Source: a virus
Taxonomy: Duplodnaviria > Caudoviricetes
IMG/VR virus record: IMGVR_UViG_3300028833_003520
DNA: 64,000 bases
Strand: one strand, 5' to 3'
In this document: one piece after another, positions 12,585 to 55,331 of the stretch
Layout: every line of letters starts with the position of its first letter
Position numbering within the stretch: position 1 is the first letter of the stretch
Position numbers and translations under genes: made by a program
The notes under the pieces: generated by a model
Seen by the model: the letters and a program-made list of their open reading frames with translations, nothing else
The model's database searches: none
Told to the model about the DNA's origin: nothing

Positions 12585-13121
12585 ATGGCAAACGTAAGAA
12601 AAGACGTAATCGGTCCTGACGGCAAGTCTGGTATGAAGGGCAGAGAAATCATCGCAAGAGTAGTTGAGCGTGACGAAAAGAATGGTAAGGGTTATTATAT
12701 GAATGCCCAGTTGAACCAGTCTTTCGGTAAGCCCGTGAACACAACTTCACAGCCTCATCTCGCAAAGGCTCACTCTTTCAAGGGTAATGACGGTACAGAG
12801 AGAAACTCTTATGATATTCGTCTTGGACCTAAGCAGGTAGAGGCACTCAAGGCTAATTCCAAGTCTTGCACACTCGAAGATGGTTCCACAATCTACGGTT
12901 TCACCGCAGACCTTATGAAGACCAAGGACAACGGACTTATGCCCGACTTTGGTACTCTCAAGCCCACTTCCAAGAAGATTGACGACAAGTCTTGGGCAAA
13001 GCAGTCTGCTACAACTCAGAAGGCTTTCAAGGCTGGTGAGGCACAGCGTGCTGCTAAGGCTGCTGAAAAGACTGCAGAGGCTCCTGCAAAGGATGACGCT
13101 CAGGCAGAAATCGGCGGTTAA
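12585..13121 (+). CDS. hypothetical protein, probably highly expressed
   Basis: AAAGGAG RBS; biased codon usage; own terminator; Ala/Lys-rich tail ending QAEIGG. Confidence 0.8.
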   Translation: MANVRKDVIGPDGKSGMKGREIIARVVERDEKNGKGYYMNAQLNQSFGKPVNTTSQPHLAKAHSFKGNDGTERNSYDIRLGPKQVEALKANSKSCTLEDGSTIYGFTADLMKTKDNGLMPDFGTLKPTSKKIDDKSWAKQSATTQKAFKAGEAQRAAKAAEKTAEAPAKDDAQAEIGG

Positions 13122-13145
13122 TTCGATTACCGATAATTCAACCTA

Positions 13146-13181
13146 TAGCACTCTCACTTCGGTGAGGGTGCTATTTTTTTT
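13146..13181 (+). terminator. intrinsic terminator
   Basis: ATAGCACTCTCAC-TTCG-GTGAGGGTGCTAT-TTTTTTT. Confidence 0.85.
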
Positions 13182-13283
13182 GTCCTGTTTTGGATAATTT
13201 TGTCTTGAAAATTTTAGCCCTTATCGTTAATATCAATTTATGAATATTGTTCATTGAAAATGTTGATAAAGGAGAAGAAAGGC

Positions 13284-13550
13284 GTGGAAAATTTCGCACA
13301 GGAAACGCTTTATGACTTGATGATGGAGCATCCAAATAGACTTGTTAGCAAGTCGTTCATCGAGCAAGGCGTAAATGAGTTATTAGGGGAAATCGAGAAG
13401 ATTGAGGGACGATTAGGAATAACAATGACTGAGGAGCGTAATAGAGTGGATGCCGAACAGAGAACTTGGAAGTATATGACACGCTCTAATGTTTATAATT
13501 CCGTTGAATATTTGAAACGGACCTACTACGACAAATATGGTCGTTTTTAA
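13284..13550 (+). CDS. hypothetical protein
   Basis: RBS before GTG 13284. Confidence 0.55.
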   Translation: MENFAQETLYDLMMEHPNRLVSKSFIEQGVNELLGEIEKIEGRLGITMTEERNRVDAEQRTWKYMTRSNVYNSVEYLKRTYYDKYGRF

Positions 13551-13689
13551 TCCTGATAAAAGACATCGAATGGGTATGCAAGGTACGAATTATGGGACAG
13601 AATTCGCTTGCATACAAGTCCATTATGTGTTAAAATATCCTCATAAATGAATCAAAACAGTAGTTTTGAGAATGTGAGGGTAATACATA

Positions 13690-14160
13690 ATGGCGAACCG
13701 ATGTTTCGGAGTAGATGGATTTTGGGATAGAGTTGAGATTGCGTGTCAGCAGTCTGGTTTATCCAAGGCAGAGATAGCAAGAAGAATGGGTTGCGAACGA
13801 AAGTGCCTTTATGAGAAACAGAATGGCTCTTCTGCAAGTTGGCATTCTGGTAGATTGGTTTCTTTTTGTCAGATTACAGGCGTGTCTGCTGATTGGCTTT
13901 TGGGATTATCTCGAAGGAAGAAGTTGAAGGGGAAGACTACTGACCCGATTAACTTCAGAGTGATTGATACCAAGACTGGTAAGGAACCTTTACTTGACCT
14001 AAACCACGTACTCAAAGAGAAGTGGTTTAAGAATAGTAACCTCATTTGGTGCGACCTGGAAGGTTGGATGATAAATGAAGATGGTTATCTGATACTTGCC
14101 GATGAATGTGGAAATTATGTATATCCTCCGCAGGATAGATTCAGAGTGGAATTTGTTTGA
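13690..14160 (+). CDS. XRE-family HTH regulator with C-terminal beta domain
   Basis: GLSKAEIARRMGCERKCLYEK...FCQITGVSADWLLG. Confidence 0.8.
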   Translation: MANRCFGVDGFWDRVEIACQQSGLSKAEIARRMGCERKCLYEKQNGSSASWHSGRLVSFCQITGVSADWLLGLSRRKKLKGKTTDPINFRVIDTKTGKEPLLDLNHVLKEKWFKNSNLIWCDLEGWMINEDGYLILADECGNYVYPPQDRFRVEFV

Positions 14161-14173
14161 TAGAGGAAGAAAG

Positions 14174-14530: not shown

Positions 14531-14541
14531 GGATTAACCAA

Positions 14542-14718
14542 ATGAGTCTTGATAAAGCAATACAACACGGTAAGGAGCATAGAAAGCCATACAGACGTGC
14601 TAAGTCTGTTGATAGTCAGTGCAGAAATCACGGTTCTTGTCTTTGGTGTAAAGGCAATAGAACTTATAGGTTTAGGAAAGAAGAAGAGAGGTTAAATCAA
14701 AATGTTGAAGAAGAATGA
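14542..14718 (+). CDS. small Cys/His phage-type protein
   Basis: MSLDKAIQHGKEHRKPY...CRNHGSCLWC; GAGGA RBS. Confidence 0.65.
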   Translation: MSLDKAIQHGKEHRKPYRRAKSVDSQCRNHGSCLWCKGNRTYRFRKEEERLNQNVEEE

Positions 14719-16504
14719 TACTTCGTTGTTTGAGTTAGGCAAGGGTTATGACATCTTTCCTGATAGATGTGCAACATCATCAGTAGATGCTACGTCTATC
14801 GTTGGTCACGTTCTTTTTAGCCAGCCTAAAAAGTGCGATAAGATAGACGCAAAATTTGCAAAGACGATTTCGAAGAAAATAGGTTCAAAGAACCTTAATC
14901 CTGTATTTGCACCTGATGCAATTCCGTATAAGTATAGTAAAGACGGCTACAAGACCGTAGGTGATGTAGTTAGAGAAGATTGGCAGGTAAGATATGGAGC
15001 GTTGCCGACAGGTGCTTTTATCGTAGATACAGAACCGTCGCATAATCTTATCATCAATACTTCTGCAGGAATTGCTGACCACTCTATCTTAAAATCTTAT
15101 GTTGATATGTTTGCTCGTAGTAGAAACAATAACAACATAGTTATTTATGACCGTAAAGGTGAGGCACTTCACTTTTATGGTAAGGAGTTAGAAAAGTACG
15201 GATATGATATCCGAATAATAGATACTATCGGTGCAAGGCGTGATGATGGAACAAGAGTATTTGGTACAGATAAGACTTGCATCACATATAATCCTTTGGC
15301 TTTAGCCGTTAAGTATGCTATTAGAGCAAGGAACGATACACGTTCCGATTGGTGGACAAAGGTTGCTATTGTTGTTAATGACGCTGTTGCTGACTTGATG
15401 TGTCGTTACCCAGAGGGTGGCGACCCATTTCATCCGACTGCGGCATACTATTTGGTCTTAGGACTCATATACGCTTTGATATGGAATGCATTGGAAGACC
15501 TGGCGAACGAGCCTATGGTCAGCAATTATGTTAATCCGTTAACGGATAGTAAATGCGTAGAGATTTTTGAGAGAGTTAATCTTGCGAATGTCTATGACAT
15601 TCTTGTCAAGATAAGAGAGGGTGATTTCAATGGTTTGAACAAACTTGGAATCAAGGTAACTGACGAGGACGATATTTATTCTTTGTTTGAGAATACAATA
15701 TCGAGAATATATGAGAGACCTTATATTGACGAGAAGGGCGAGGAGTATGATTTTAATTCCTCTATACGTCAGTTACTTAAGTATTCGTGGGATATTGCCA
15801 GAGTTTCGTTATGTAGTAACGATATATTCTTTGCAATAAATGAGTTAGCACCGATTGCCGAGATGAGGTTTACCTTAACAGGCATTCGTGGTTCTAATGT
15901 CTTCGATACCGAAGAGTTTGTGGCAGATAATGGTGCAAAGAAACAGATTATTTTCTTTGTCTATGGTGGTTATCAGACCAACTATAGTAGGTATTTTAGG
16001 ACATTTATTCATCAGGTGCTTAACAAAGTGTATGCATCTGTAGCAACTCCGAGAGAGCCAATTAAGGTCAAGGGCACACGTTTTGTCATAGACGACCTTT
16101 CTATGATAATAGATGCACAGCAAGAAGGACATTGGGACAATGCGTTGGACCCCTTGCTTGCTGTTGGGCATCAGTATAATCAGTTATTCACAGTAGCCAC
16201 TTCATCAATAGATATGTTCAGAAGCGTATTTGGTCTGACAAAGGACAAGGATTTCGAGGAGTTTGAGAAGACTGCTCATATTGTGTTCATTAAGAGTGCT
16301 GATGATACTCTTATTGATTATTTTCTTGCACGAGAGAAGAAGTGCCATACTGTAATACCTGAAAGGTTTGGCTATAATGACCTTGCATTTATGGATAGAG
16401 GGTGCAGAGTAATACTGTGTCCTGATGGTACAGCCGTTTGGTGTAAGAACTTGTTTCCTTATACGACACGGTTCAATAACGTAATTTTTTTGACAGTCTT
16501 ATGA
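14702..16504 (+). CDS. degenerate soluble paralogue of the VirD4-like coupling protein
   Basis: Collinear motifs with 21203..25579 (GAFIVDT, YDRKGE, YNPL, GGDP, TRFVIDDL, IVFIKSADD, YNDLAF); no Walker A GK; no TM. Confidence 0.75.
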   Translation: MLKKNDTSLFELGKGYDIFPDRCATSSVDATSIVGHVLFSQPKKCDKIDAKFAKTISKKIGSKNLNPVFAPDAIPYKYSKDGYKTVGDVVREDWQVRYGALPTGAFIVDTEPSHNLIINTSAGIADHSILKSYVDMFARSRNNNNIVIYDRKGEALHFYGKELEKYGYDIRIIDTIGARRDDGTRVFGTDKTCITYNPLALAVKYAIRARNDTRSDWWTKVAIVVNDAVADLMCRYPEGGDPFHPTAAYYLVLGLIYALIWNALEDLANEPMVSNYVNPLTDSKCVEIFERVNLANVYDILVKIREGDFNGLNKLGIKVTDEDDIYSLFENTISRIYERPYIDEKGEEYDFNSSIRQLLKYSWDIARVSLCSNDIFFAINELAPIAEMRFTLTGIRGSNVFDTEEFVADNGAKKQIIFFVYGGYQTNYSRYFRTFIHQVLNKVYASVATPREPIKVKGTRFVIDDLSMIIDAQQEGHWDNALDPLLAVGHQYNQLFTVATSSIDMFRSVFGLTKDKDFEEFEKTAHIVFIKSADDTLIDYFLAREKKCHTVIPERFGYNDLAFMDRGCRVILCPDGTAVWCKNLFPYTTRFNNVIFLTVL

Positions 16505-16637
16505 CAAACAGATTTCAATTTGTTTGCATAATTTTTATCAAAATTATTGAAAATTCATTTTCGATGTGATATTATCCACATTGTGAATTACTGAAACGGC
16601 TTATTTATGAGCCAATTTTTCGAAAGGAAAGTAATAA

Positions 16638-16838
16638 ATGGCGAAGGCAAAAAAGGATGCAAAGTTCTTTACTTGCTACTTAAAGAAAGAACTTGCTGAC
16701 AAAATCGACGTGTATTCAACCGAGAATCATTTGTCAAAAACTGCTATAGTTGAGATTGCTCTCGAAAAATTTTTTGACGAGTCACAATCTACTGCTAATA
16801 ACCTTAATCCTCTCATAAATGAGTCAAAAGTGGACTAA
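16638..16838 (+). CDS. ribbon-helix-helix (CopG-like) regulator
   Basis: FTCYLKKELADKIDVYSTENHLSKTAIVEIALEKFF; flanked by CTCATAAATGAG-like sites. Confidence 0.75.
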   Translation: MAKAKKDAKFFTCYLKKELADKIDVYSTENHLSKTAIVEIALEKFFDESQSTANNLNPLINESKVD

Positions 16839-16888
16839 TTTATGTTGCGGATGCTGTCGCTATATGTTATAATTCTTTCATAAATGAG
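16812..16888 (+). promoter_or_regulatory. promoter of the ClpB-VirD4 operon with CTCATAAATGAG operators
   Basis: CTCATAAATGAG at 16812; TGTTATAAT at 16865; TTCATAAATGAG at 16877. Confidence 0.65.
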
Positions 16889-16921
16889 CAGAAACGAAGT
16901 TTTAAGAGGAGATAGAAAGTA

Positions 16922-18742
16922 ATGCTTTTTGCTGAATCTGATAAAAATTATAAGTATGCACAGGAACATTTTCCTTGCTTGAATACTTTTACACAGCAGT
17001 TGAAAGCACCTGGATTTGAAATTCAGAGCCGTGAGAAAGAGATGGACTCCATCGAAGCGGCTCTTAATCGTCCTGAACTTTGTAACGTGTTACTTTTAGG
17101 AGAGCCTGGCTCTGGTAAGACAGCACTTGTGCAGTCTGTAATGATGCACGATACCAAGAGGCTTTATCTTGAAGTTGACCTTTCCAAGATGATTGCAGAT
17201 ACAAATGACGTTAACGAGATGGCTACAAGGCTTAAGTCCTTGTGCGACGAGGTAACGATATTCCGTAAGGAAATGCAGACTGAACTTGTTCTTTTTATGG
17301 ATGAGTTCCATCAGATTATGATGTTGTCTAATGCGGCGGCTGAAGCAATGAAGCCGTTGCTTGCTGATTCAGGCACACGAGGCGTGCGTATCATAGCAGC
17401 CACAACAGAAGCAGAGTTCAGAATGTATATTGCTCCGAACCAGCCGTTGGTGGAGCGTCTGCAGAGAATCAGACTCAAAGAGTTGGATAAGCAGGCAACT
17501 ATCAATGTTCTTAAGAACAGAGCCAAGATATATGGCGTAGAAGACCAAATCACTGAGTATAACAATATATACGGACTTATCTATGAATATACGCAGAGAT
17601 ATATCCCTGCGAACGCTCAGCCTCGTAAATCATTGCTCGTATTCGATGCGATGATTGGTTGGCATAATTCAAAGGCGAGACCTTTGGATAAGGCACTCCT
17701 TGCTGACGTTATTTATGAGTCAGAAGGTGTCAATGTTACTTTTAGAGTAGATGCTACATCAATCAAGAAGGAACTTGACAAGTATGTATTTGCTCAGGAC
17801 TTTGCGACAAGCGTTATTGAGCAAAGGCTTCAGATTTGTGTTGCTGACCTTAATAATAAGTCAAAGCCTATGAGTTCATTCTTATTCACAGGTTCAACTG
17901 GTGTAGGTAAGACTGAGGTTACGAAGCAGTTAGCCCGAATTCTTTTCGGTGATAATGCGAGAACAAGTCTTATCCGTTTTGATATGACAGAATATGCTAC
18001 AGAGGACTCTCTGGAGAGATTCAGAGCAGAACTTACACAGCGTGTTTGGAATAGACCTTATTCTATCGTTCTTTTGGACGAGATTGAGAAGGCGTGTGCT
18101 CCTGTTACACGAGTTCTCTTGCAGGTTTTGGATGATGGCAGACTTATGGATGAGAATAACCGTGAGGTTTCATTCCTTAACTCGTATATTATCCTTACTA
18201 CCAATGCTGGTAATGAGATTTATAAGACCATTGCCCAGTATTCTCCTGATGATACAGGTTCAGGTAAGGAATTCCATAGGTATGAGAAACTCATCAGACA
18301 GTCTATTTCAAGCACGACAGGTGATAATAGATTCCCTCCTGAGTTGCTTGGACGTATCGACTGTATCGTGCCGTTCCAACCTCTTTCAGAGGAAACGAAG
18401 AAGAAGATTGTTAAGCATAAGTTGGAAGAGTTAATCAAGAAGGTTTCTGATATACACAATGTTGCTCTCAATTATGACCAGAGGGTCATACAGTACATTG
18501 TTGAAGATAACCTTGACTCTGACTCTGATGCAGGTGGTGCACGTACTGCAATCGCTAAACTCGAATCTGAGGTTTATACCGAAGTATCAAGAGTTATCAA
18601 CACTTGCCCTGATGCCATCAGATTGAGAATCGTTGTTGACGGTAAGATGATGTGCGAAGACAAGACGCAACTTGAATCGACGGCTTCTATCAGCGTTAAG
18701 GTTGGCAGTGAGACGAGACAAGTTAAGAAGACCTACTATTAA
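16922..18742 (+). CDS. ClpA/ClpB-like double AAA+ ATPase lacking the N-domain
   Basis: NBD1 GEPGSGKT, LFMDEFH, IAATT, LVERLQ; NBD2 FTGSTGVGKT, RFDMTEY, LLDEIEKA, LLQVLDDGRL, PELLGRID, GAR. Confidence 0.92.
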   Translation: MLFAESDKNYKYAQEHFPCLNTFTQQLKAPGFEIQSREKEMDSIEAALNRPELCNVLLLGEPGSGKTALVQSVMMHDTKRLYLEVDLSKMIADTNDVNEMATRLKSLCDEVTIFRKEMQTELVLFMDEFHQIMMLSNAAAEAMKPLLADSGTRGVRIIAATTEAEFRMYIAPNQPLVERLQRIRLKELDKQATINVLKNRAKIYGVEDQITEYNNIYGLIYEYTQRYIPANAQPRKSLLVFDAMIGWHNSKARPLDKALLADVIYESEGVNVTFRVDATSIKKELDKYVFAQDFATSVIEQRLQICVADLNNKSKPMSSFLFTGSTGVGKTEVTKQLARILFGDNARTSLIRFDMTEYATEDSLERFRAELTQRVWNRPYSIVLLDEIEKACAPVTRVLLQVLDDGRLMDENNREVSFLNSYIILTTNAGNEIYKTIAQYSPDDTGSGKEFHRYEKLIRQSISSTTGDNRFPPELLGRIDCIVPFQPLSEETKKKIVKHKLEELIKKVSDIHNVALNYDQRVIQYIVEDNLDSDSDAGGARTAIAKLESEVYTEVSRVINTCPDAIRLRIVVDGKMMCEDKTQLESTASISVKVGSETRQVKKTYY

Positions 18743-18811: not shown

Positions 18812-21103
18812 ATGGGTTTCAGAAAGAAAAACGGAAAGCCTTCAAACGGAACACCTGAATCCGCAGACAAGCCTGCTGTTGCAGCAACGCCTGCAGAGTC
18901 TCCCAAGAAGGCGAAGAAAAAGGGTGTCGGTATGGCTTCCCTGTTTACGGAAACCGTACCTGAACAAGTTTTGGATGAACTCAATAGCAACACTCCCTTC
19001 ATCCTCGACATAGATGGAGAGAAGAAGTATATTGCAGTTCAGTTCACAGCCGAGGCTATTGGTGGTCTCGATAAAAAGACTTCAGCGAAGGATGAGGCTA
19101 AAGGACAGTTGGTTCAGCAACTTGATTCGGGTGCTATTTCCGCTTACTTTACGGCTCAGACTTTGGAAGACGAGGAAATTACCTTTATCCCTAATTCTAC
19201 TTCACTGATGAATGTAGAGGAGTTTGGTCTTGTAAGAAATCTTCCTTGGACATTTGTTACCATTGATGGTGACGGTACTATTGAGAAGACTTCGATTAAG
19301 ACAGGCTTTGATGAGGTCAAGGAAATTCTCGAAGGCAAGAAGAGTATTGACGATGTATTCGAAGGTGCTTTTGTAGGAAAGGATATTCCGACAGATGAAG
19401 CACCTGCAGATGAAGTCAAAGAGGAGCCTGAACTCACCGATATCGACTCAATTCCTTCAGAGATTGTTGACGATGTACCCGAAGGTGATTCTCCTGAAGA
19501 TGGTGAGGACGATGAGGTTCCTGCATTTGAAGAGGAACTTCCTGACGTTGGCGGAGATATGCCGTTAGTAGAAGTTCCTGAGTATGACGATGTTCCCGAA
19601 ACATCTGATTATGATGACATAGGTGGTCTTGATGAAGGCGAGGCTCCCGAAGAGGTAGAGGAAACAACTGATATTCCTTATGATGAAGACAGACCTTTCG
19701 ATTATGACGCAAAGTCTGTTAATGAGGAGATTATCAGACGTTTCTATTCAGATGAACTTGGTCTTGAGGTTTCAACAGAGCCGTTTGATGGTCATTATGT
19801 TCACGGTAACAAGTATCTTCCTTTCGAAGAAAATAGACCTGAAGGTTGGCTTAATAACTATCTCAACGAGATGTGTAGAAATGCCAATATTGAGATGAGC
19901 AGAATTCACGCTGAAAATCTTAATAAGATTAGGCAGTATTATCTCCAGACAATGGCGAAGCACTGTGAGGACATTACGAAGGAACTTGATGTTCAGAATA
20001 TGTCCACAACGTATGGTCAGTATAAGCAGAATATCGACCGTGAGAAGGAAGAGGCTATTGCTCATATTGATGATAAGGTTGCACAGAGGAAACTTGAACT
20101 CAATCAGGATTGGGATAGAAAGTTGTCTGAAGTAGCAGAGCAGGGTGCTCAGGATGCTCGTAATCGTTATCGTGAGAGATACGGAAGACAGCACGATGAT
20201 GACCTTACTCATATTGGACCTATCATCAGAGAAGAGATTGAGTCTAATTACACTCTCGATGTACGTCATCTTAATGAAGACCGTAAGGCAGAGGCTCTTA
20301 AGAGACTTGACTATGCGGTAAACGAGACGCTTGCCGAAGTAAATGTTCTTTATGAGAAGTTACTTGCTGAGGAAATCAAGCGTTACAGAGAGTGGGAAGG
20401 CGATATTCGTGACTATCTCGATGACAACCGTAAGAACGATGTTGCCCACGACCAGGCACTTGCCGAGGAACTCGCACAGAAGACTAAGGCAGATAAGTTG
20501 AATGAGGAATGGACAGCCAAGACTGCTGCTATGACAGAGGAGTTCGAGGCAAAGAAGGCATCTCTGCACGCCGACCTTGAGCGTATGGAGAAAGAGCACG
20601 CACTTGCTCTTAAGAAGCAGAACGACGATTGGCAGGAGAAGTTGGATTCTGAGAAGTCTATCGTTGCGTCACAGCGTGAGCAGATTGACGGACTTATTGA
20701 TAAGTATGCGGCTCTTGACGAGACCAAGAAGAAGGAATACGCATCATTTATTAACGAGTTGAAGAACGAGAAGGAAGCATCAGATAGCAAGTACAAGGAT
20801 ATGATGGAGTCTAATAAGAGTTCCAATCGTGTTGCTTTATTCGCTACGATTATCGGTGTTATCTGTGCTCTGGCAATCGGATTCCTTGCAGGTTATTTCG
20901 TATATGCAAAGATGTCTGCAAAGACAGCCGAAGAGCAGGTTATTGCTGAATATCAGGCTCGTATTGACGAGTTGGAGAGAAAGTATAATCTGACCACAGG
21001 TCAGAATGCAACAGATTCAACTGTAACTGTTACACCTGCTCCGACTGGTACTACTGAGACAACTACTGAGACATCAGAAGCAACATCAGAAACAACTAAC
21101 TAA
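18812..21103 (+). CDS. acidic/coiled-coil protein with C-terminal TM anchor (putative transfer apparatus component)
   Basis: D/E/P-rich linker, long heptad region, TM VALFATIIGVICALAIGFLAGYFVY; lies between the ClpB and VirD4 genes. Confidence 0.7.
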   Translation: MGFRKKNGKPSNGTPESADKPAVAATPAESPKKAKKKGVGMASLFTETVPEQVLDELNSNTPFILDIDGEKKYIAVQFTAEAIGGLDKKTSAKDEAKGQLVQQLDSGAISAYFTAQTLEDEEITFIPNSTSLMNVEEFGLVRNLPWTFVTIDGDGTIEKTSIKTGFDEVKEILEGKKSIDDVFEGAFVGKDIPTDEAPADEVKEEPELTDIDSIPSEIVDDVPEGDSPEDGEDDEVPAFEEELPDVGGDMPLVEVPEYDDVPETSDYDDIGGLDEGEAPEEVEETTDIPYDEDRPFDYDAKSVNEEIIRRFYSDELGLEVSTEPFDGHYVHGNKYLPFEENRPEGWLNNYLNEMCRNANIEMSRIHAENLNKIRQYYLQTMAKHCEDITKELDVQNMSTTYGQYKQNIDREKEEAIAHIDDKVAQRKLELNQDWDRKLSEVAEQGAQDARNRYRERYGRQHDDDLTHIGPIIREEIESNYTLDVRHLNEDRKAEALKRLDYAVNETLAEVNVLYEKLLAEEIKRYREWEGDIRDYLDDNRKNDVAHDQALAEELAQKTKADKLNEEWTAKTAAMTEEFEAKKASLHADLERMEKEHALALKKQNDDWQEKLDSEKSIVASQREQIDGLIDKYAALDETKKKEYASFINELKNEKEASDSKYKDMMESNKSSNRVALFATIIGVICALAIGFLAGYFVYAKMSAKTAEEQVIAEYQARIDELERKYNLTTGQNATDSTVTVTPAPTGTTETTTETSEATSETTN

Positions 21104-25878: not shown

Positions 25879-26089
25879 ACATTATTGTCAGATGGCTGAA
25901 TCGCATTTTGTAAATCACCATAAAGATTCAGACAGGCTACCGAAACGAGATAAAACCGTTGAGGGAGAAAAGACGCAAATAGAGACGGCATTCGCGTTGC
26001 CGTGATAATTGCAACTGCGAGAGCCAAACGGTTGCGGATAAGTCTGATACTTTATGTATATTCTGACAATGATTCTTAATAAGTATAAC

Positions 26090-26118
26090 TTGACAATCTC
26101 CATATATGGCGTTATACT
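26090..26118 (+). promoter_or_regulatory. CCATATATGG promoter (copy 2), upstream of the RNAP operon
   Basis: TTGACA-atctCCATATATGGcgt-TATACT. Confidence 0.85.
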
Positions 26119-26185
26119 GACTTCAGTGGGCAAGGCTCACAATTCTGTATGTATTCTTATAATTTTCGAAAGGAGAAATAAGACA

Positions 26186-33434: not shown

Positions 33435-33484
33435 GACTTTAGTTAATATAGAGCAATACTGTTTGCTTGAAAGGAGATACAGTA

Positions 33485-43877: not shown

Positions 43878-44423
43878 ATGGCAGATGATAACAGGCAGGA
43901 AATGATTGATTTACGTCAATCTATTAACCTTCTTAATACCACTATCGAAGGACTTCAGAGTGAAGTTAAGAAGATGAACGAGCGTCTCGATAAGATTTCT
44001 GAGAATACTAAGGACACAGTTACGGCTGTTAAAGAGAATACTCAGTACACTGTTAAGTCGGGTAACTCTATTGTTAGTGCTGTTGATAAGAATACTGAGG
44101 CAACGAAGAATGGTGCTGAAAGAGTAGCAGGCGTTGTTCTCGAAGGTTCTGAGGCTCGTAGGGCGTTCTTTGACCAAATTTTAGCGGCTCAGAGACAGCA
44201 GCAGATGGCGAACGGTGGTCCTGGTATTGCAAAGGAAAGCCTCAATGCTGACCAGTTAAAGCATTTTGCTTCACTTGGTAAGACAGCAGACGACCTTCCT
44301 GCAAACATTAAGTTGGCAGATGGCGTTAACGGTAAGAAAGGTGTGAACCTTAATATCCGTCAGAGACGTACTCCTGATGTTCCCACAAGTGGTGAGGGAC
44401 CTGCTTCTCCGCAGATGGAGTAA
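43878..44423 (+). CDS. coiled-coil protein with RRTPDVP...QME tail
   Basis: AAGGAGG RBS; own terminator at 44443-44473. Confidence 0.75.
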   Translation: MADDNRQEMIDLRQSINLLNTTIEGLQSEVKKMNERLDKISENTKDTVTAVKENTQYTVKSGNSIVSAVDKNTEATKNGAERVAGVVLEGSEARRAFFDQILAAQRQQQMANGGPGIAKESLNADQLKHFASLGKTADDLPANIKLADGVNGKKGVNLNIRQRRTPDVPTSGEGPASPQME

Positions 44424-46145: not shown

Positions 46146-46505
46146 ATGGCTAACGAGAATGTTGCATACACCATATTCAAAGATAGTCACGGACGTGAAA
46201 AGTTTCGTGGTCTTTGGGATAACAACGGTGTTCCAACGCCTGTTGAAGTTAGACTTGATTATGGTAAGCATAAATGGACTGATAAAGAGATTATGTCTCT
46301 TCTGAAAGGCGAGGAAGTCCAATTAGACTCGTTTGAAACGAAGGGTGGTAATCAGATGCCTATTTCGGGCAAACTCGGTCCTCAGTCTTATATGGGTCGC
46401 CCATATATAGGCTTTGTAAGGACAGATGCAGAAGCCACAAAACGAAGACTCCCTGAAGTTGGTGGAGTAGAACCTACACAGCCTCAGGCAGAAATGGAGG
46501 GATAA
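46146..46505 (+). CDS. topoisomerase C-terminal-repeat (Toprim_Crpt/DUF3945-like) small protein with KRRLP tail
   Basis: WTDKEIMSLLKGEEVQLDSFETKGGNQMPISGKL resembles the repeat consensus, recalled by eye. Confidence 0.55.
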   Translation: MANENVAYTIFKDSHGREKFRGLWDNNGVPTPVEVRLDYGKHKWTDKEIMSLLKGEEVQLDSFETKGGNQMPISGKLGPQSYMGRPYIGFVRTDAEATKRRLPEVGGVEPTQPQAEMEG

Positions 46506-46509: not shown

Positions 46510-47124
46510 ATGTCTTCTGAATCTTTACGTCCAGATAATCCACAAAAGTCAATGCCATTTAGATTGGTTGATTTACAGAGACCAAGAAACGGTATTGATT
46601 TAACTCGCAGAAGTGTTATTTACGAAGGTCAGGAATATTTCGTAAGAATTGGTGCATATTCAAAAGGACAGATGGCGTTGCGTTTTGAAGCGAAGAATGC
46701 GGAAGCATTCAAGCCAGGTGTTGTCCAGAGTTCTGTTAAGCCTATCAGGGTTACTTGGAACTTGGGTAACTATATAGGAAGAGAACGTCCTATGCCGAAG
46801 AATAGCAGTTTTTTGAATACGCCCGAATTTCCTGGCATTGAGGATTTTGTTATGAGTACGGGAGTAGCAAAACCTGTACTTCGTAATGGAGAACAAGTTG
46901 TACGCTGTCATAGAGCCAACAATGAGTGGTATCCTGCTTATGAATTTGACGAGAAGAAGTTGAGAATATTAGACCCCGAAGGGTATGAGCGTTATTCTCA
47001 ATCTTATGATAGGCAGGCAGCCGAGGAAGAGAAGATGAAGACAGCAAGGCTGTCAAGACGACACGGTTCTTGTCCTCAGTTGGAAACATATGACGAGGTT
47101 GTCTTGGACGACGCACAGTTCTAA
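46510..47124 (+). CDS. DUF4313-like protein
   Basis: Y..GQMALRF...VTWNL...SFLN..EFPGIEDFV..TGVAKP...YPAYEFDEKKL...PEGYERY, recalled by eye. Confidence 0.55.
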   Translation: MSSESLRPDNPQKSMPFRLVDLQRPRNGIDLTRRSVIYEGQEYFVRIGAYSKGQMALRFEAKNAEAFKPGVVQSSVKPIRVTWNLGNYIGRERPMPKNSSFLNTPEFPGIEDFVMSTGVAKPVLRNGEQVVRCHRANNEWYPAYEFDEKKLRILDPEGYERYSQSYDRQAAEEEKMKTARLSRRHGSCPQLETYDEVVLDDAQF

Positions 47125-49089: not shown

Positions 49090-49407
49090 ATGGCATTTTC
49101 ACAGTCATCATTGAATAGTCATAAAGATTTGGCAACAAGTGGTATTTCTGAAGAAGAATGGATGAAAGACGATTCTTTGGTTAAAACAAGTGATTTAACT
49201 GAGGAACAGAAGGTTCGTCTTGATAAGATAATGCAACCACCTGTATCAAGATTTAATTCACAGATACGTAAGCGTTTGCAAACTTCTCCAAGACAGGAGA
49301 GGTCAGATTTTATCATTATAAATGAGAAGCCGTCTAATAGAAGGCTGCCTAACTTACCTTCACAATTGACGAGTGATAGAGATTTAGGAGACGATTTTGA
49401 TGGATAA
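49090..49407 (+). CDS. small protein with NRRLPNLP tail
   Basis: AAAGGAG RBS. Confidence 0.7.
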   Translation: MAFSQSSLNSHKDLATSGISEEEWMKDDSLVKTSDLTEEQKVRLDKIMQPPVSRFNSQIRKRLQTSPRQERSDFIIINEKPSNRRLPNLPSQLTSDRDLGDDFDG

Positions 49408-49435: not shown

Positions 49436-49465
49436 GGGAATCTATGAGCAAGAGAGGAAAAGTCT

Positions 49466-50266
49466 ATGACAAGTAATAACCGTCAATTAAAAGCAACACC
49501 TTCTGGTGGTGATATGAACAGCAAAGAACCTAATATGTTTACGTTCTATGTTGATAATTACGGTAGTTATCCTCAAAATAAGCCTGACAGTATCGCTCTG
49601 TATGGTAAAGAGAATATTCCGTTCTTGAAGGATAAGAGCATTGATGAAATCAAGAATGCTCATATGTACTGGGGCAGTGATGAGGCGAGAAGTAGGGAAC
49701 TTTTAGGTATGTATAACGGTGATACGATGGTACTTTTCGGTGATATTGAAAAGTTACCTACAGAGTATAAGCACGATGCCGAATTGATGACACCAAAGTA
49801 TGTTGCAGAGCGTGTACAGAAATCGAAGATGATGAATGTGTATGCTCCTGATGATTTATCGAAAAACTCTTTTTATCTTATTACTTTGGGTAGCAAGGAC
49901 GAAGATGGTGAGGTTTTCCCTGGCATTGAGAGATTTAATCCTGACTATGAGGGAGAGAGTGTTGATGATATTACAAATCATCTTTGTGAGTTCCTTTCAC
50001 AGACAGACAAGGCTTATGTAGATAATCAGAAGTGGGTTCACGAAGTTTACGAAGGAAAAGACCAAGTTTTCGGTAAGTATGTTAACGATATTAGTGATAA
50101 AACGATGAATAAAATCTATGAGGAAATCAAGGGCTATGGTAAGGCATCAGAGATACCTACCATTAAGTCACAGGTAGTAGATTTAAGAAAGAGTCAGAGG
50201 GCAAATCGTAGATTGCCTGATGTACCCGATGTGCAGAATGATAATGAAAAGCAATGTGGAGAGTGA
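49466..50266 (+). CDS. hypothetical protein with NRRLPDVP...QCGE tail
   Basis: GAGG RBS; 266 aa. Confidence 0.75.
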   Translation: MTSNNRQLKATPSGGDMNSKEPNMFTFYVDNYGSYPQNKPDSIALYGKENIPFLKDKSIDEIKNAHMYWGSDEARSRELLGMYNGDTMVLFGDIEKLPTEYKHDAELMTPKYVAERVQKSKMMNVYAPDDLSKNSFYLITLGSKDEDGEVFPGIERFNPDYEGESVDDITNHLCEFLSQTDKAYVDNQKWVHEVYEGKDQVFGKYVNDISDKTMNKIYEEIKGYGKASEIPTIKSQVVDLRKSQRANRRLPDVPDVQNDNEKQCGE

Positions 50267-50280
50267 AAGGAGATTAGCGT

Positions 50281-51510
50281 ATGCCTAATTACAAGAGAGG
50301 TCGTATGGGACCTGATAAGTATTTTGATTACTTAGTAGAGCAAGATGAACAGCGTGTTCGTAATGAGAAGGTCGATTCTATACGAGAGACTATCTTTGGA
50401 CCTGCATCATATCAGTCACAGGCAGACGAGGAAAGAACTCAGAGGCAAACAGAGTTTGCTAAACTTGTCCTTGACGGTAAGATGGACTATAGCAGAGCCA
50501 AAGCCAATTATGTTAATAAAAACACGGCTGTAGATTACGAGTGGTTAGCCACGAGAACTGATTCTCAATTGAACAAAGGATTGTTTCTTCGACAGAGATT
50601 TCAGCAGGATGCAAGCGAAGATGAATCCGCTTTGAAGAAGAATATTGAGAATATTAAGAATGAACCCTGTGTATATTTGAGTACGTGCCGTGAGTTACGT
50701 ATAGAGCCAACATCGAATCGTAGCGAAGTGCTTAAACATAAGAGCGATTATGTAGCGTCCTTTGATACGGATGAGGAAGACTTTTTGCGTAAAAAGGCGG
50801 CTGAGTTGGAGTCAAATCCTAATCAGTTGAAAGATTATCTGAGTGTGGCTGCACAGGAAGAGATAATGGATATGCGTGCCAGTGATGAGTGGGTGAAGGC
50901 AAATGGCGGCATACATTTGGATAATGCTAAAAAGTATGGCGAAGGCATTAGACATTTGGATGAGCCGATTCGTTATATGAGCAAATCGTCACAGCAGATG
51001 TTTTATCAGTCCATTATGGATTATATGAAGGAGTCTGCGTTGGGTCCTGATAAGAATCATCCGCTATTTGATAGACCACATAGTTTCACACCTGACCAAG
51101 AAGCAGAATTGCTTTGTAGGTCTAATAAGTGGTATGCGAAGGATTTTGATGCGGCGTATGATACGGCATTCCATAAAGACGGACCTTTGTTCCCGTATCA
51201 GTTTGTTAATCACAGTGGTATGAAACTTAATGAGCAGATGGTTCGTATTCCTGATGATAAGTTACCGAAGGAGCGTTCTTACTTTACAGGTAAATTTGCG
51301 TCTTTGGGATATATTAAACCGAATCCCGATACTGAGAGTGCAATGAAGAAGCAAGAAGGTAGTGCACGTAGGATGCCTGAAACTCTTGCAGATATTCAGC
51401 CGAACCCTGATAGCGTAACGAATAAGCAAGATGATAGTGCACGCAGGATGCCTAAAACTCTTGCAGATATTAAACCGAATCCGAATAACGGTATGCAGTT
51501 AGGAGAGTAA
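50281..51510 (+). CDS. hypothetical protein with duplicated SARRMP tail ending QLGE
   Basis: AAAGGAG RBS; 75-bp duplication in the 3' end. Confidence 0.75.
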   Translation: MPNYKRGRMGPDKYFDYLVEQDEQRVRNEKVDSIRETIFGPASYQSQADEERTQRQTEFAKLVLDGKMDYSRAKANYVNKNTAVDYEWLATRTDSQLNKGLFLRQRFQQDASEDESALKKNIENIKNEPCVYLSTCRELRIEPTSNRSEVLKHKSDYVASFDTDEEDFLRKKAAELESNPNQLKDYLSVAAQEEIMDMRASDEWVKANGGIHLDNAKKYGEGIRHLDEPIRYMSKSSQQMFYQSIMDYMKESALGPDKNHPLFDRPHSFTPDQEAELLCRSNKWYAKDFDAAYDTAFHKDGPLFPYQFVNHSGMKLNEQMVRIPDDKLPKERSYFTGKFASLGYIKPNPDTESAMKKQEGSARRMPETLADIQPNPDSVTNKQDDSARRMPKTLADIKPNPNNGMQLGE

Positions 51511-51514
51511 TGAT

Positions 51515-52189
51515 ATGGCTAATAAAAAAGCGAAGAAGAGTCTTGCCAAGACGAATACGAAGCCGTCTGTTAAGAAGTCAAATGGTGGTGAATCCAAGAC
51601 TGTAGCGAGTGAGCGAAAGGAAGAGATGAACCTCGATTTAGGTGTCTATGCTGATGGTACTCCGAAGGATGATAAGTTTGCAAAGGCAAAGCAGTTGAAG
51701 GACAAGGGTAATAAGGATGTTACTGATGGCGTTGTAAATCAAGCCAAGAATGCACCTGGACTTGCCATTGGTATTCTCACGACCGCAGGTACTTTAGGCG
51801 GTGGAGCCGTTGTTGGTGTACCGATGATAGTCGGTGCGGCACCTGGTATTATCAAAGGCAAGTATCAGGAAACGAAGGGCAAGATTGAGTTGGCTCAGAG
51901 TGGAATAGAAGCCAATAAGGTTATGAAAGATAATGATATGACGAAGGAAGAAAAGAAGGCGGCTCGTCGTGAGTTAGCCGAGTACAATAAGGATTCAGTC
52001 AAGCGTGCTATTAAGTCCAAGCCTGAGGAAGTTAAGAAGACTCTTGATGATACGAAGGATGCTTTAAGTCAGATTGCAGAGGAAACGAAGAAGTCTGATG
52101 TACACGCAAAGCGTGTAAAACAGGCTAATAGCAGATTGAGTATTCCTGAAACAAGTTCAGTAAACAAGGGTGTTGAACTTGGCGAATAA
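51515..52189 (+). CDS. Lys-rich protein with Gly-rich hydrophobic hairpin, tail KRVKQA...ELGE
   Basis: APGLAIGILTTAGTLGGGAVVGVPMIVGAAPG; architecture like 26186..26812. Confidence 0.75.
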   Translation: MANKKAKKSLAKTNTKPSVKKSNGGESKTVASERKEEMNLDLGVYADGTPKDDKFAKAKQLKDKGNKDVTDGVVNQAKNAPGLAIGILTTAGTLGGGAVVGVPMIVGAAPGIIKGKYQETKGKIELAQSGIEANKVMKDNDMTKEEKKAARRELAEYNKDSVKRAIKSKPEEVKKTLDDTKDALSQIAEETKKSDVHAKRVKQANSRLSIPETSSVNKGVELGE

Positions 52190-52329
52190 GCCGAGAATAT
52201 AAAGTACAGTGTTGGCGTAAATAGTCTGGGTGCATAGTCGCTCAGACTATTTATTTTGAAAAATGTTGACAAAACTATGGTTTTATCTATATAATTGATT
52301 TCAAGAATAGGGAAAGAGAGGTGATAGAA

Positions 52330-52710: not shown

Positions 52711-52716
52711 TTTACA

Positions 52717-52745
52717 TTGACAATCTCCATATATGGCGTTATACT
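52717..52745 (+). promoter_or_regulatory. CCATATATGG promoter (copy 7)
   Basis: TTGACA-atctCCATATATGGcgt-TATACT. Confidence 0.85.
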
Positions 52746-52787
52746 GTTTTTATAGTATGACGCCATATTTTTATTGAAAGGAAGTCA

Positions 52788-54140
52788 TTGAGTATGGAAG
52801 AAAAAGATATTAAAACTTTATCGTTAGACTATAATTTGTCGCTCGAAGAGCAGACAAAACAGATAAAGGATTATGCTAAAACGGTTAAGGATAGGTCTTT
52901 CCGAGTACAGTATAAAAACAACGAAGAATTCGTTGATTGTGTAAGCATTGTTGATTCGAATAGACGTGTTGATGCTTATGGTAAAGAGCATCCCCTTCCA
53001 CACGTAAAACCGTTTTCAGTTGTTGACGTTTGGTATGAGAATGATGTCAATGGTAGAGGAACAGAGTTACTTGAAGACCAAATGTCAATAGACGGCGTAG
53101 CAGAAGAATATAAGAACCAATCTGATTGGCAGAAGGATGTGTATATGTCAAAAGCAGTAAAGAGTAGCGATTCAGTTTTTGCATATACACAAGAGGATGT
53201 TAAGACTATTGAGCATTTAACTCCTGGTCAGATGAGTGATATGAATAGACGGATTAAACGCACTTTGTTTTTGAATGCTGATTCAAATCTTTCGCAGCAA
53301 TCAATGGCAATAAACAAGTTTGCAAAGAATGGTAATTTTGGCACGTTTTTCGTGGAATATGTTGATAAAGACGGTTTTTGTGTTGATTCAACGATGGCTG
53401 TGGATTTGAGAAAGAATCTGGAAGACGAACCTGATAGGTTTGACTTTTATGGTGATGACCGTCTTGCCAGAAACGTAAGCGTGAGTGAGTTCGTTGAACT
53501 TCGTGAGAAACAGCCGTTTTCACCTAATCACGAACTTACAATGACATCGTATAAAGGTTATGCTGATGAGAAGGCTTTTCAGGAGAATAAGGGTGTTGAT
53601 GTATGCTACCTTTATGATGAGAAAAGGAAGGCTAATAAGCCTGTTCTTTTTATCACTTCTGTAAAGGAACGTGACGGTTTTATTAAACCTCATTCGAACG
53701 GTGGTACAAAATTTGATGGCGAAGCCTATAAATCAAGGCTACCGTATCAGTATAAAGATTGGAAGGTTTTCTTCCACGAGTCTTATGATGATGTGACATC
53801 TGCTATGGCTGCTATGAAAGAGCGTATGGATTCGTTTAGTAAATATAGTCGTACACCTGATTGGAAACAGATGGTGGACTATTATGGTGTAAAATGTACA
53901 AGTGTAGTAGCAGATGTTTATGATAAGAGATTACCTAAGATGTTCAATGAAAATTGCATTGTGAATACAAATGTGGCTTCGAAGAAAGGCGGTATTCCAA
54001 CGACGAATGTTCAGCGTGGTAACGATGAACCAAGGAAGTCAGGAATGCCGACTACAAATGTTAATCCAGAGAAGCCAAAGCGTAGATTACCTTCTATGCC
54101 GACGACAAGTGCAGATAGTGAATGTCAGTTAGGAGAGTAA
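52788..54140 (+). CDS. hypothetical protein with internal duplication and KRRLPSMP...QLGE tail
   Basis: GAAAGGA RBS; LSLDYNLSLEEQ.. / LNADSNLSQQS.. repeat. Confidence 0.75.
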   Translation: MSMEEKDIKTLSLDYNLSLEEQTKQIKDYAKTVKDRSFRVQYKNNEEFVDCVSIVDSNRRVDAYGKEHPLPHVKPFSVVDVWYENDVNGRGTELLEDQMSIDGVAEEYKNQSDWQKDVYMSKAVKSSDSVFAYTQEDVKTIEHLTPGQMSDMNRRIKRTLFLNADSNLSQQSMAINKFAKNGNFGTFFVEYVDKDGFCVDSTMAVDLRKNLEDEPDRFDFYGDDRLARNVSVSEFVELREKQPFSPNHELTMTSYKGYADEKAFQENKGVDVCYLYDEKRKANKPVLFITSVKERDGFIKPHSNGGTKFDGEAYKSRLPYQYKDWKVFFHESYDDVTSAMAAMKERMDSFSKYSRTPDWKQMVDYYGVKCTSVVADVYDKRLPKMFNENCIVNTNVASKKGGIPTTNVQRGNDEPRKSGMPTTNVNPEKPKRRLPSMPTTSADSECQLGE

Positions 54141-54142
54141 GT

Positions 54143-55015
54143 ATGAGTGTTATTACAGTTCACGGTGTTAAAGGTACTGTTGGTGATAAACCGTTATTTG
54201 ATAAGTTAGTTGAAGATGGTGTTATTCACGAAGGAACTTTATGGTCACCGAAGCGTAAACAGGAAGTTCAGTTTAACAGTATTCTTGATTATCAGAAGTG
54301 CACGGATGCAGTCAAGGCTATGATTGCTGAACGCTGTGCGAATGATGTGCTAAAGTTTCGTAAGAATAATGAAGGCAGAGTTACTGAAGCAGATATCGAA
54401 GAGTATGCGAAGCATTCGAGTGTTGAGCAGTTCAATATGCCTGTTAGCAAGGGTAATGATGGTTCTGTGGTATGGTCTTTGAATTATTGTTATGATGACA
54501 CACCTTTAACGGCAATAAGTACACTTTATCCTGATACACGGTTTGAGTATTATGCAAGCACTGAAGGACATTTAGACACATCTTGTTATGTAAAGAACGA
54601 TAAGTTGTGTAATAAAGATGGTAAGTATTTTGACAAGTATATGCTTGTCAATAAGAGTGCTATCCGAAAAGTGCGAGATAGTGATTCTATGCAAGTTAAT
54701 ATATGGGTGGATTCAAAGGACAAACAGTCTGCAAAATTCTATGTTAAGGAAGATGCAGTTGAGGTGTCTGATTTGACTGGAACTCATAGTTGGCAAGCAG
54801 ATAAGCGTAAGATATTTATCGAAGATAAGAGTAAACCGATTACGCTGTATCGAACACTGGAGAATGGTGAGCGTTCTAAGGAAGAGTGGATGCTTGACGA
54901 TTTAGTCAAAGCAGTCGATGACTGTAAGAACGATTATCGGAAGCGTAAAGCAGAAGAGAAGGCAAATCAGATAACTGGTCCACAGACTGATAATCAGCAG
55001 CAGATTGGAGAGTGA
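54143..55015 (+). CDS. hypothetical protein, tail RKRKAEEKA...QIGE
   Basis: RBS supplied by the upstream GGAGAG (Gly-Glu) codons. Confidence 0.75.
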   Translation: MSVITVHGVKGTVGDKPLFDKLVEDGVIHEGTLWSPKRKQEVQFNSILDYQKCTDAVKAMIAERCANDVLKFRKNNEGRVTEADIEEYAKHSSVEQFNMPVSKGNDGSVVWSLNYCYDDTPLTAISTLYPDTRFEYYASTEGHLDTSCYVKNDKLCNKDGKYFDKYMLVNKSAIRKVRDSDSMQVNIWVDSKDKQSAKFYVKEDAVEVSDLTGTHSWQADKRKIFIEDKSKPITLYRTLENGERSKEEWMLDDLVKAVDDCKNDYRKRKAEEKANQITGPQTDNQQQIGE

Positions 55016-55019
55016 CAGT

Positions 55020-55331
55020 ATGAGTGGTTTTATTTTAACAACGAAGTCAGGTAGTATTTACACCTTTGAGAAGAACAAGGATAATCCGTATCACACAATG
55101 TCGAGTGAAAAATTCGGTAAGAAAGAAGTGAGTGTTGATAGTGCAGTTATGTGTGGTGCTCCTTTTCAGTTTACTTGCACCGATAATGAGATGAATGGCG
55201 ATTTGAGAGGTAAGCCGATTAGAACATCTGTTGTTGAAAAGATTAGATGTTTTGATGACCAACCGAGAAGACTTCCTGATGTGCCTATACAGCAGACTGG
55301 ATATTCGGCACAGCAGGGTTATGGTGAGTAA
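55020..55331 (+). CDS. small protein with PRRLPDVP...GYGE tail
   Basis: Last gene of the + strand block. Confidence 0.7.
   Translation: MSGFILTTKSGSIYTFEKNKDNPYHTMSSEKFGKKEVSVDSAVMCGAPFQFTCTDNEMNGDLRGKPIRTSVVEKIRCFDDQPRRLPDVPIQQTGYSAQQGYGE

Follow-up and report, generated by a model that had tools for sequence, protein, structure and literature searches.

Why do unrelated proteins encoded by one block of genes, a giant RNA polymerase (RNAP) among them, end in the same kind of C-terminal tail? The question is raised by a 64,000-nucleotide stretch of DNA from IMG/VR virus record IMGVR_UViG_3300028833_003520, the whole of which is called the window here and in which a co-directional plus-strand gene block spans positions 12585 to 55331. 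The window has a G+C content of about 40% and belongs to a mobile element of roughly 240 kb; a VirD4 coupling protein that matches the window's at 100% over the searched region sits on a 243.5-kb contig. Judging from their sequences, at least nine and probably about 18 soluble, unrelated proteins carry the same two-part tail. Our proposal, to which we give an even chance, is that the transfer module of the element would read this modular tail, with its two parts, as an address label. The tag exists, is under selection at the protein level, is modular, is found in two phyla and co-occurs with a trio consisting of VirD4, a ClpB-like ATPase and the RNAP. We infer the identity of its reader, export itself and the destination of the proteins.

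A two-part tail at the C terminus

The survey covered 68 greedy, non-overlapping open reading frames (ORFs) of at least 60 residues, 18,516 residues in all. Genes are named by their ORF starts, so that 55005 stands for the feature at 55020-55331 and 54122 for that at 54143-55015. In this set, R-R-[LMTI]-P occurs 10 times, in nine proteins, and all 10 matches fall within the last 50 residues, with none in the remaining 15,116 (Fisher p = 4e-8); after within-protein residue shuffling, 0.08 proteins on average, and never more than 2, were tagged. Counted from the first Arg, the distances to the C terminus are 19, 19, 19, 20, 20, 21, 22, 22, 44, and 47 residues, i.e., 8 of the 10 matches lie 19 to 22 residues before the end. 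A terminal hydrophobic-Gly-[Glu/Gly] sequence, with an optional extra Glu, closes nine proteins against 0.37 expected (p = 2e-10). Pooled over all sets, the core reads R-R-[LM]-P-[DN]-[VTI]-[PS], with a modal distance to the end of 20 residues. The tails occupy the extreme C terminus, in polar, non-globular stretches with basic residues that look disordered by composition. The nine proteins, termed class I carriers, lack any signal peptide, transmembrane (TM) helix or hydrophobic segment. Their tails are as follows.

34367-34501, plus strand: tail of 33467-34501 (344 residues), with R-R-L-P 44 residues from the end; it ends L-G-E, and this G-E is not a Shine-Dalgarno sequence
44364-44423, plus strand: tail of 43878-44423 (181 residues), with R-R-T-P-D-V-P 19 residues from the end; the orthologue has R-R-I-P-E-T-P
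46078-46140, plus strand: tail of 44548-46140 (530 residues), with R-R-L-P-D-V-P 20 residues from the end; it ends Y-G-E-E
46443-46505, plus strand: tail of 46146-46505 (119 residues), with R-R-L-P-E-V 20 residues from the end; compared with its orthologue
49339-49407, plus strand: tail of 49090-49407 (105 residues), with R-R-L-P-N-L-P 22 residues from the end
50207-50266, plus strand: tail of 49466-50266 (266 residues), with R-R-L-P-D-V-P 19 residues from the end; it ends C-G-E
51367-51510, plus strand: duplicated tail of 50281-51510 (409 residues), with two R-R-M-P copies at 47 and 22 residues from the end; it ends L-G-E
54081-54140, plus strand: tail of 52788-54140 (450 residues), with R-R-L-P-S-M-P 19 residues from the end; it ends L-G-E
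55266-55331, plus strand: tail of 55020-55331, with R-R-L-P-D-V-P 21 residues from the end; it ends Y-G-E

The two tail copies of 50281 are in tandem, 25 residues apart, and share the sequence R-R-M-P-[EK]-T-L-A-D-I-x-P-N-P; the orthologue continues for 37 residues past the end of the window protein and thus has a different C terminus. The last gene of the list, 55020-55331, is followed by a terminator-like hairpin and then by no gene.

The codons used in the tails bear on whether they could be a functionless by-product of overlapping ribosome-binding sites, low-complexity linkers or gene-end duplication. Such an origin finds some footing in the local duplication in 50281 and in five terminal Gly-Glu pairs (44548, 46146, 50281, 52788, and 54122), whose codons double as the Shine-Dalgarno sequence (GGAGAG) of a next gene starting 2 to 5 nucleotides on; the K-E end of 41840 likewise serves the gene that follows it. 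However, in 33467, 51515, 55005, and 12585, the terminal motif persists in other codons with no gene closely downstream, indicating that it is also selected as protein. The ribosome-binding sites therefore cover the five Gly-Glu pairs and neither the remaining ends nor the proline motif, which lies about 60 nucleotides before the stop codon. Furthermore, the Arg, Leu, and Pro codons of the motif vary synonymously between copies, so that selection acts on the peptide and a DNA-repeat origin is ruled out. Since the tails are also kept in orthologues and across phyla at less than 31% body identity, and the statistics are incompatible with chance, the by-product explanation is already largely refuted, and we leave it hardly any probability.

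The class I tail described in a sequence-only reading of this DNA is therefore real. That reading had also counted about 18 carriers, and here the outcome is mixed: the class I part is significant, and the weak class I tails (36804, 37367, 46510, and the RNAP) and class II tails (51515, 26054, 41840, 54122, and 12585) are each non-significant alone. The class II tails have a basic R-V-K-x-A-type stretch in place of the proline motif. All of these tails are kept in orthologues except that of 54122, for which no orthologue is in hand. The RNAP and the nine tails are listed below.

26888-33298, plus strand: giant RNAP of 2136 residues, with a match to Pfam Rpb1_2 (Rpb1 domain 2)
33236-33298, plus strand: degenerate tail of the RNAP, with R-R-T-I-E-T-P 20 residues from the end
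37257-37352, plus strand: variant tail of 36804-37352, with R-R-N-M-P-K-T-L 31 residues from the end
39194-39346, plus strand: variant tail of 37367-39346, with R-K-V-P 50 residues from the end; the orthologue ends Q-L-G-L
47056-47124, plus strand: variant tail of 46510-47124, with R-R-H-G-S-C-P 22 residues from the end; kept in the orthologue
52109-52189, plus strand: class II tail of 51515-52189, with R-V-K-Q-A, then a degenerate R-L-S-I-P; it ends L-G-E, and this G-E is not a Shine-Dalgarno sequence
26720-26812, plus strand: class II tail of 26054-26812, with R-V-K-K-A-E-N-K-L; it ends G-Y-G-Y and is kept in the orthologue
42401-42475, plus strand: weak class II tail of 41840-42475, whose K-E end is the next gene's Shine-Dalgarno sequence; compared with its orthologue
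54938-55015, plus strand: class II tail of 54143-55015, with a basic patch; it ends I-G-E, overlapping the next gene's Shine-Dalgarno sequence
13044-13121, plus strand: class II tail of 12585-13121, with a basic Ala-rich stretch; it ends I-G-G

None of VirD4, the ClpB-like ATPase, both HU-family proteins, the PemK and DUF2130 proteins, ThyX, and the products of the minus-strand genes showed the tag. The earlier statement that the tail spares regulators, HU, ThyX, the minus-strand genes, and membrane proteins thus stands for HU, ThyX, and the minus strand, and has to be relaxed for membrane proteins, since a hydrophobic segment lies near the N terminus of 26054 and perhaps also in 51515. The functions of the tagged proteins are hardly hinted at by searches: Pfam gave just two sub-threshold matches, to DUF948 (43878) and DUF4313 (46510), and no match was found in PHROGs, NCBIfam, the PDB sequences or the ESM Atlas.

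Conservation, modularity and lineage dialects

VirD4 has 783 relatives at E<=1e-30. The closest element available for comparison comes from bovine metagenomes (VirD4 87% identical, 31 kb covered), and there the orthologues retain the anchor residues of the tail and have drifted in the linker. Of 13 tagged pairs, 9 are more alike over their last 30 residues than over the body. Examples of orthologue identities, tail versus body, are 90% versus 68% for 36804, 80% versus 51% for 33467, 70% versus 47% for 51515, and 50% versus 23% for 49466. Two checks proposed by the sequence-only reading, C-terminal enrichment over shuffled proteins and conservation of the tails in homologues, thus both came out in favor of the tail. 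Far more distant relatives of 12585 keep its basic stretch and a P-A-V-G end in 22 actinobacterial loci at a body identity below 31%; the family member in locus L008 ends E-V-G.

The tail is also modular. An exhaustive search with the 44548 protein yielded 116 relatives of its C-terminal domain; leaving out the query's two near relatives, R-x-[LMV]-P lies 19 to 26 residues from the end in about 17 of 114, and many short relatives have no tail at all. Since the same domain family occurs with and without the tail, the latter is a modular addition. In a third lineage, represented by locus L102, class I or class II tails are found on the RNAP and five neighbors, and the counterpart of 36804, recognized by synteny and tail similarity, has R-R-L-P-K-E-L. 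One tagged protein of this locus (16318-17319, minus strand; 333 residues; R-R-M-P-N-V ... D-F-G-D) has a match just below threshold to the Pfam CdiA-CT RNase A toxin domain (25.3 bits versus a cutoff of 27), and a small ORF (17316-17669, minus strand) overlaps the start of its gene from upstream; possibly, the two encode a tagged toxin and its small partner.

The tail of the window's RNAP is degenerate, and the claim that this enzyme is tagged was upheld through its homologues. The orthologue in the bovine-metagenome element keeps R-R-S-I-E-T-P and ends M-G-E-G. More distant RNAPs have the canonical tag, e.g., R-R-V-P-N-V-P ... G-L-G-E or R-R-M-P-N-V-P ... D-F-G-D, the motif ranging over R-R-[VML]-P-N-V-P ... 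G-L-G-E. At related loci, mostly actinobacterial, the two-part tail takes the form [RS]-R-P-x-Y-T-P-S ... D-D-Y-G-M-G-Y, and a hydrophobic-Gly-x end closes 50 of 62 distinct RNAP-family tails. The gene 3' of that for the RNAP (34532-36790, plus strand) encodes a 752-residue protein kept in 55 related loci. Its relatives have acidic-aromatic ends, such as E-D-Y-Q-P-A and D-F-N-L-G, and the window copy ends M-Y-G-S-F-I-N; it was absent from the tagged proteins listed in the sequence-only reading.

The nearest VirD4 relatives on complete plasmids are actinobacterial (Streptomyces, Gordonia, and Rhodococcus; 54 to 58% identity), and the VirD4 subfamily and the RNAP occur on the identical 13 of 72,556 plasmids. 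Complete plasmids with the trio include Gordonia pGKT2, Rhodococcus pGS01, Staphylococcus epidermidis pHD75-1_1, and Lactococcus pJM1A. In species genomes, 80 loci were located, the majority in Actinomycetota and a few in Firmicutes assemblies, and the gene order in all 80 is ClpB-like ATPase, 763-residue protein, VirD4, RNAP. By its sequence, the tag is found across two phyla, Actinomycetota and Bacillota. That it travels with the trio makes it plausible, and leaves it unproven, that the tagged proteins are cargo.

The wording of the terminal residues differs between lineages. In pGKT2 (182 kb), five proteins, including the RNAP, end G-P-[QE]-[LM]-[GS]-[GA] or close to it, and the strict terminal pattern occurs in 5 of 766 ORFs, all at 53 to 83 kb on the VirD4 strand, a count in which only the absence elsewhere is informative since the pattern was derived from those five proteins. 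One of the five is a LysM protein without a signal peptide. The Gordonia dialect is G-P-[QE]-L-G-[GA], Paenibacillus has E-G-P-S-L and I-G-M-T-L, and L102 has its own. Each dialect is common to the RNAP and its neighbors within one element, and such lineage-specific uniformity fits an element-encoded, co-evolving reader.

The transfer module as a candidate reader

Four genes of the block are candidates for, or neighbors of, such a reader.

14702-16504, plus strand: soluble paralogue of the VirD4 ATPase domain, 600 residues, no TM helix, untagged
16922-18742, plus strand: ClpB-like double AAA+ ATPase, 606 residues, untagged, with no N-domain, middle domain or pore loops
18812-21103, plus strand: conserved coiled-coil protein of 763 residues between the ATPase and VirD4 genes, with one TM helix near the C terminus, untagged
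21203-25579, plus strand: oversized VirD4-type coupling protein, 1458 residues, untagged; Pfam T4SS-DNA_transf, TraG-D_C, and TrwB_AAD_bind

In the mechanism that we envisage, a single receptor encoded by the element would read the label. It would recognize the basic proline motif, R-R-[LM]-P-[DN]-[VTI]-[PS], held at a constant spacing of about 20 residues from a second part formed by the free C terminus, where polar or acidic residues lead into a hydrophobic or aromatic position and then Gly. The receptor would lie within the transfer module and could be the oversized VirD4, perhaps together with the pseudo-ATPase paralogue or the membrane-anchored 763-residue protein. The tagged proteins, including the RNAP, would thereby be directed to the transfer machinery for export, probably into a recipient cell along with DNA. 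A bolder version, which we regard as tentative and rather doubtful, is that Gram-positive megaplasmids and islands of one widespread family, found in Actinomycetota as well as Bacillota, inject at least 15 tagged proteins, including an RNAP of about 2000 residues, with their DNA through a non-canonical machine built on an oversized VirD4, the incoming DNA being transcribed by the imported enzyme.

VirD4 has TM helices at 43-70 and 272-296 flanking a variable extracytoplasmic loop of about 200 residues. Its cytoplasmic part comprises the ATPase with an all-alpha domain, a beta-sandwich insert (approximately 775-971), and conserved C-terminal domains. The insert has a confidently predicted fold (predicted local distance difference test [pLDDT], 90.7), and the predicted fold of the whole cytoplasmic part is poor (pLDDT, 57.6). 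An SH3-type reader in the insert was considered and rejected, the fold being a generic beta-sandwich (Foldseek gave no match at E<=0.001, and the best Z from VIA was 6.7). A complex prediction pairing VirD4 550-1458 with the last 40 residues of 44548 scored 0.11, which is no evidence either way. Several VirD4 homologues (P0033, P0034, P0050, P0068, and others) contain intein-type homing-endonuclease domains (PF14528 and PF05204). The soluble paralogue at 14702-16504 is 27% identical to VirD4 over two stretches, with degenerate Walker A Gly-Lys and Walker B acidic-pair positions and no Pfam match; it occurs among relatives only in the close ones L006 and L007, and by its sequence it is a possible adaptor.

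The ClpB-like ATPase had been proposed as the unfoldase for the tagged cargo, and this part of the proposal was not supported. Walker A and B motifs are intact in both AAA+ modules. The first Walker A, at residue 60, leaves no room for an N-domain, and a chain shorter by about 250 to 300 residues than ClpB/Hsp101 leaves no middle domain. ClpB, Hsp104, and ClpA grip the polypeptide by pore-loop tyrosines, of the K-Y-R-G type in D1 and the G-Y-V-G type in D2. In the alignment with Hsp101, the D1 pore loop of the window's protein is replaced and its tyrosine lost, and a 12-residue deletion removes the G-Y-V-G loop of D2; both losses extend to the family as a whole. The missing pore loops speak against the proposed role as an unfoldase.

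Several observations weigh against the address label, and a number of them concern this machinery. Binding to VirD4, or transfer by it, is so far a prediction from sequence and genomic context. The G-[YF]-[VI]-G pore loop is found in 0 of 85 members of the ClpB-like family (loci L001-L089), and its loss removes the obvious way of unfolding a 2136-residue cargo; passage by way of a type IV secretion system (T4SS) requires unfolding (PMC5826034). The four complete trio plasmids have no match to Pfam AAA_10 (PF12846), CagE_TrbE_VirB (PF03135) or DUF87 (PF01935), so that the channel is not a recognizable canonical T4SS; neither was a VirB4-type ATPase matched by Pfam in the window, and MOB-suite calls the four plasmids mobilizable or non-mobilizable, none conjugative. 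As far as the sequences indicate, the channel would be of an unrecognized type or very divergent, and a working T4SS channel is hypothetical. A MobL relaxase adjoins the module in relatives, with none within the window, and no clear tag is visible at the C termini of MobL from about 60 relatives. The relaxase is the canonical T4SS substrate, and relaxases often use internal signals. In addition, two class II carriers (26054 and perhaps 51515) may be membrane proteins. Finally, in the stretches seen, Firmicutes relatives with VirD4 57 to 59% identical have no clear tag, and the Staphylococcus and Lactococcus plasmids, which have the trio and a VirD4 about 32 to 34% identical, have no obvious shared tail. 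What stands of the proposed VirD4 cargo set is a protein-level signal that is common to unrelated soluble proteins including the RNAP, resembles known C-terminal secretion signals in outline, and is tied to a VirD4-centered module in two phyla; the unmatched VirB4 and the untagged MobL are its weak side.

The untagged relaxase and the loop-less ATPase, which resembles a remodeler more than a threader, would sit well with a serious rival in which nothing is exported. The tail would instead be a docking tag for an intracellular hub, i.e., a transcription or replication factory, a scaffold, HU-like proteins or a host factor, that would concentrate the RNAP and accessory proteins on the element's DNA. 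Indeed, the RNAP is the most conserved carrier, and two HU-family genes and the 752-residue protein are syntenic with it. Class I polyproline ligands of the SH3 type follow the consensus basic-x-hydrophobic-P-x-hydrophobic-P; five of the nine class I tails of the window fit it exactly, and such contacts are typical of assembly. However, no candidate hub was found, the beta insert of VirD4 being a generic beta-sandwich and not SH3-like, and a free C terminus set at a fixed distance from a motif would sooner be expected of a signal for secretion or degradation. A tailed LysM protein, which would act on the cell wall and lacks a signal peptide, does not fit docking either, and the terminal dialects argue against a conserved host partner. 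On balance, we consider docking unlikely.

Few genes of the block are recognized by Pfam, namely, those for the ClpB-like ATPase, VirD4, the RNAP, the two HU-family proteins, a PemK toxin domain, and DUF2130. Flanking genes on the minus strand encode a D5-type primase-helicase, a ClpX-like ATPase (8722-9762), ThyX, and a DNA methylase. The presence of both a ClpX-like and a ClpB-like ATPase in the element could mean that the tail is a degron for timed destruction or remodeling of the RNAP and other briefly needed proteins, by one of these ATPases or by a host AAA+ protease. Free-carboxylate C-terminal tags are classic ClpX and ClpA signals, and the tails are polar and disordered-looking by composition. 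The ClpX-like ATPase, put forward in the sequence-only reading as the partner of such a degron, nevertheless lacks homologues on the plasmids from Gordonia, Rhodococcus, and Staphylococcus, the first two of which carry the tag, and this weakens the degron. The window showed no gene for a ClpP-type protease, and the ClpB-like ATPase lacks pore loops. Moreover, the tails end in Gly-Glu, Gly-Gly or Gly-Tyr, in contrast to the non-polar ends of known ClpX tags; known degrons have no equivalent of the proline motif at its fixed distance; and lineage dialects do not fit conserved host proteases. A degron is, in our view, improbable.

The primase-helicase, ThyX, and methylase genes are phage-like, and some phages, such as N4, carry an RNAP inside the virion; the tail might accordingly load proteins into a phage-like particle or vesicle, as had also been suggested. 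Against such a packaging signal, none of ten large proteins from the block, among them seven tagged ones, had a PHROGs match, so that no phage structural family was found there, the RNAP had no match in 50,697 phage records, and the relatives, which encode MobL relaxases and VirD4, are either plasmids or islands in chromosomes. We regard packaging as very improbable.

Two further observations concern neighboring genes. At 2337-3930 on the plus strand, three tandem paralogous genes encode proteins of about 165 to 185 residues, all of which start with an L-P-x-E-Y-N motif. Near the plasmid ssb gene of two relatives lie genes for small hypothetical proteins (L001, 38082-38396, minus strand; L004, 36491-36778, minus strand) that end E-E-P-P-F or P-E-S-P-F; compared with D-E-P-P-F at the tip of the single-stranded DNA-binding protein, these ends suggest that they may mimic its tail.

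The feature is confirmed as real and conserved. To our knowledge, no consensus signal has been described that selects the proteins traveling with DNA in Gram-positive conjugation; likewise, searches of the literature on plasmid RNAPs in conjugation, on the tail motif and on MobL/VirD4 in actinobacteria found no description of the tag. Being short, sharply defined, modular, and conserved, the tag turns the cargo question into simple experiments. Should the tail indeed direct export with the DNA, Gram-positive conjugation would gain its first sharply defined linear export signal; the tail would provide a cargo list for hundreds of uncharacterized elements in soil actinomycetes and gut or rumen Firmicutes, and could serve as a portable delivery tag; a plasmid would bring its own RNAP into a new host. 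Should docking or degradation turn out to be its role, the tail would still mark out a co-regulated protein set around an unstudied plasmid RNAP. New here are the cross-phylum version of the tag, its modularity, the overlap of some ends with ribosome-binding sites, the loss of the pore loops, the lack of a VirB4 match, and the weakening of the ClpX degron.

Comparison with known delivery signals

The Agrobacterium proteins VirE2, VirE3, and VirF carry Arg-containing C-terminal signals for translocation by VirB/VirD4. More generally, T4SS substrates have short, disordered, Arg-containing C-terminal signals, and conjugative T4SSs such as that of the F-like pED208 transfer plasmid proteins (PMC8406263). 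The tail resembles the VirB/VirD4 signals in being short, unstructured, Arg-containing, and at the extreme C terminus of unrelated proteins encoded beside a VirD4. It differs from them in that its consensus is sharp: a proline motif lies at a constant spacing of about 20 residues before the end, and the terminus is a defined hydrophobic-Gly motif. The setting differs as well, with Gram-positive hosts, a large cargo set that would include an RNAP, no canonical VirB4 found in the complete relatives, and an untagged relaxase in relatives. The Dot/Icm signal of Legionella and Coxiella, a Glu-rich E-block with a hydrophobic residue near position -3, is read by DotM, part of the coupling-protein complex, on hundreds of substrates. 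There, too, unrelated carriers have a polar or acidic stretch over the last 20 residues or so and a hydrophobic residue 2 to 4 positions before the end. However, the Dot/Icm signal is a compositional bias without an R-R-L-P anchor, the system is type IVB and Gram-negative, and no DotM-like protein was identified here.

In type VII secretion, EspC is bound by the AAA+ ATPase EccA. EccC, through the third of its FtsK-like ATPase domains, binds the C terminus of EsxB, L-S-S-Q-M-G-F (PMC6954902). This tail is the most striking match in terminal residues, comparable to Q-L-G-E, Y-G-M-G-Y, and E-G-M-G-F here, and its reader belongs to the FtsK/HerA superfamily; the resemblance may be coincidental. 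Type VII systems also share with the present module the phyla Actinomycetota and Bacillota and an accessory AAA+ ATPase beside the main one. They differ in that the carriers here are large and diverse and not WXG100 hairpins, and the coupling protein of a T4SS stands in the place of EccC. The toxins of the Xanthomonas T4SS are marked by XVIPCD domains, which are bound by the all-alpha domain of VirD4 (PMC8740702). In both cases, a common C-terminal module would mark unrelated proteins for one VirD4, which in Xanthomonas carries the receptor in an inserted domain. The XVIPCD is, however, a folded domain of about 120 residues as opposed to a linear motif of about 25 residues here, and the VirD4 of the window has an additional beta-sandwich insert and C-terminal region.

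Phage N4 injects its virion RNAP, a T7-like single-subunit enzyme, with its genome by the capsid route. The present element would, in a similar way, deliver its own very large RNAP with its DNA, so that its first genes could be transcribed without the host enzyme. In contrast to N4, the enzyme here is a fused beta/beta'-type two-barrel polymerase (Rpb1_2), and the route would be of the conjugation type. The tail thus differs from the signals of all the systems compared: its context has no recognizable VirB4, and the tail itself is a sharp, bipartite linear motif with fixed spacing on a large set of proteins that includes an RNAP.

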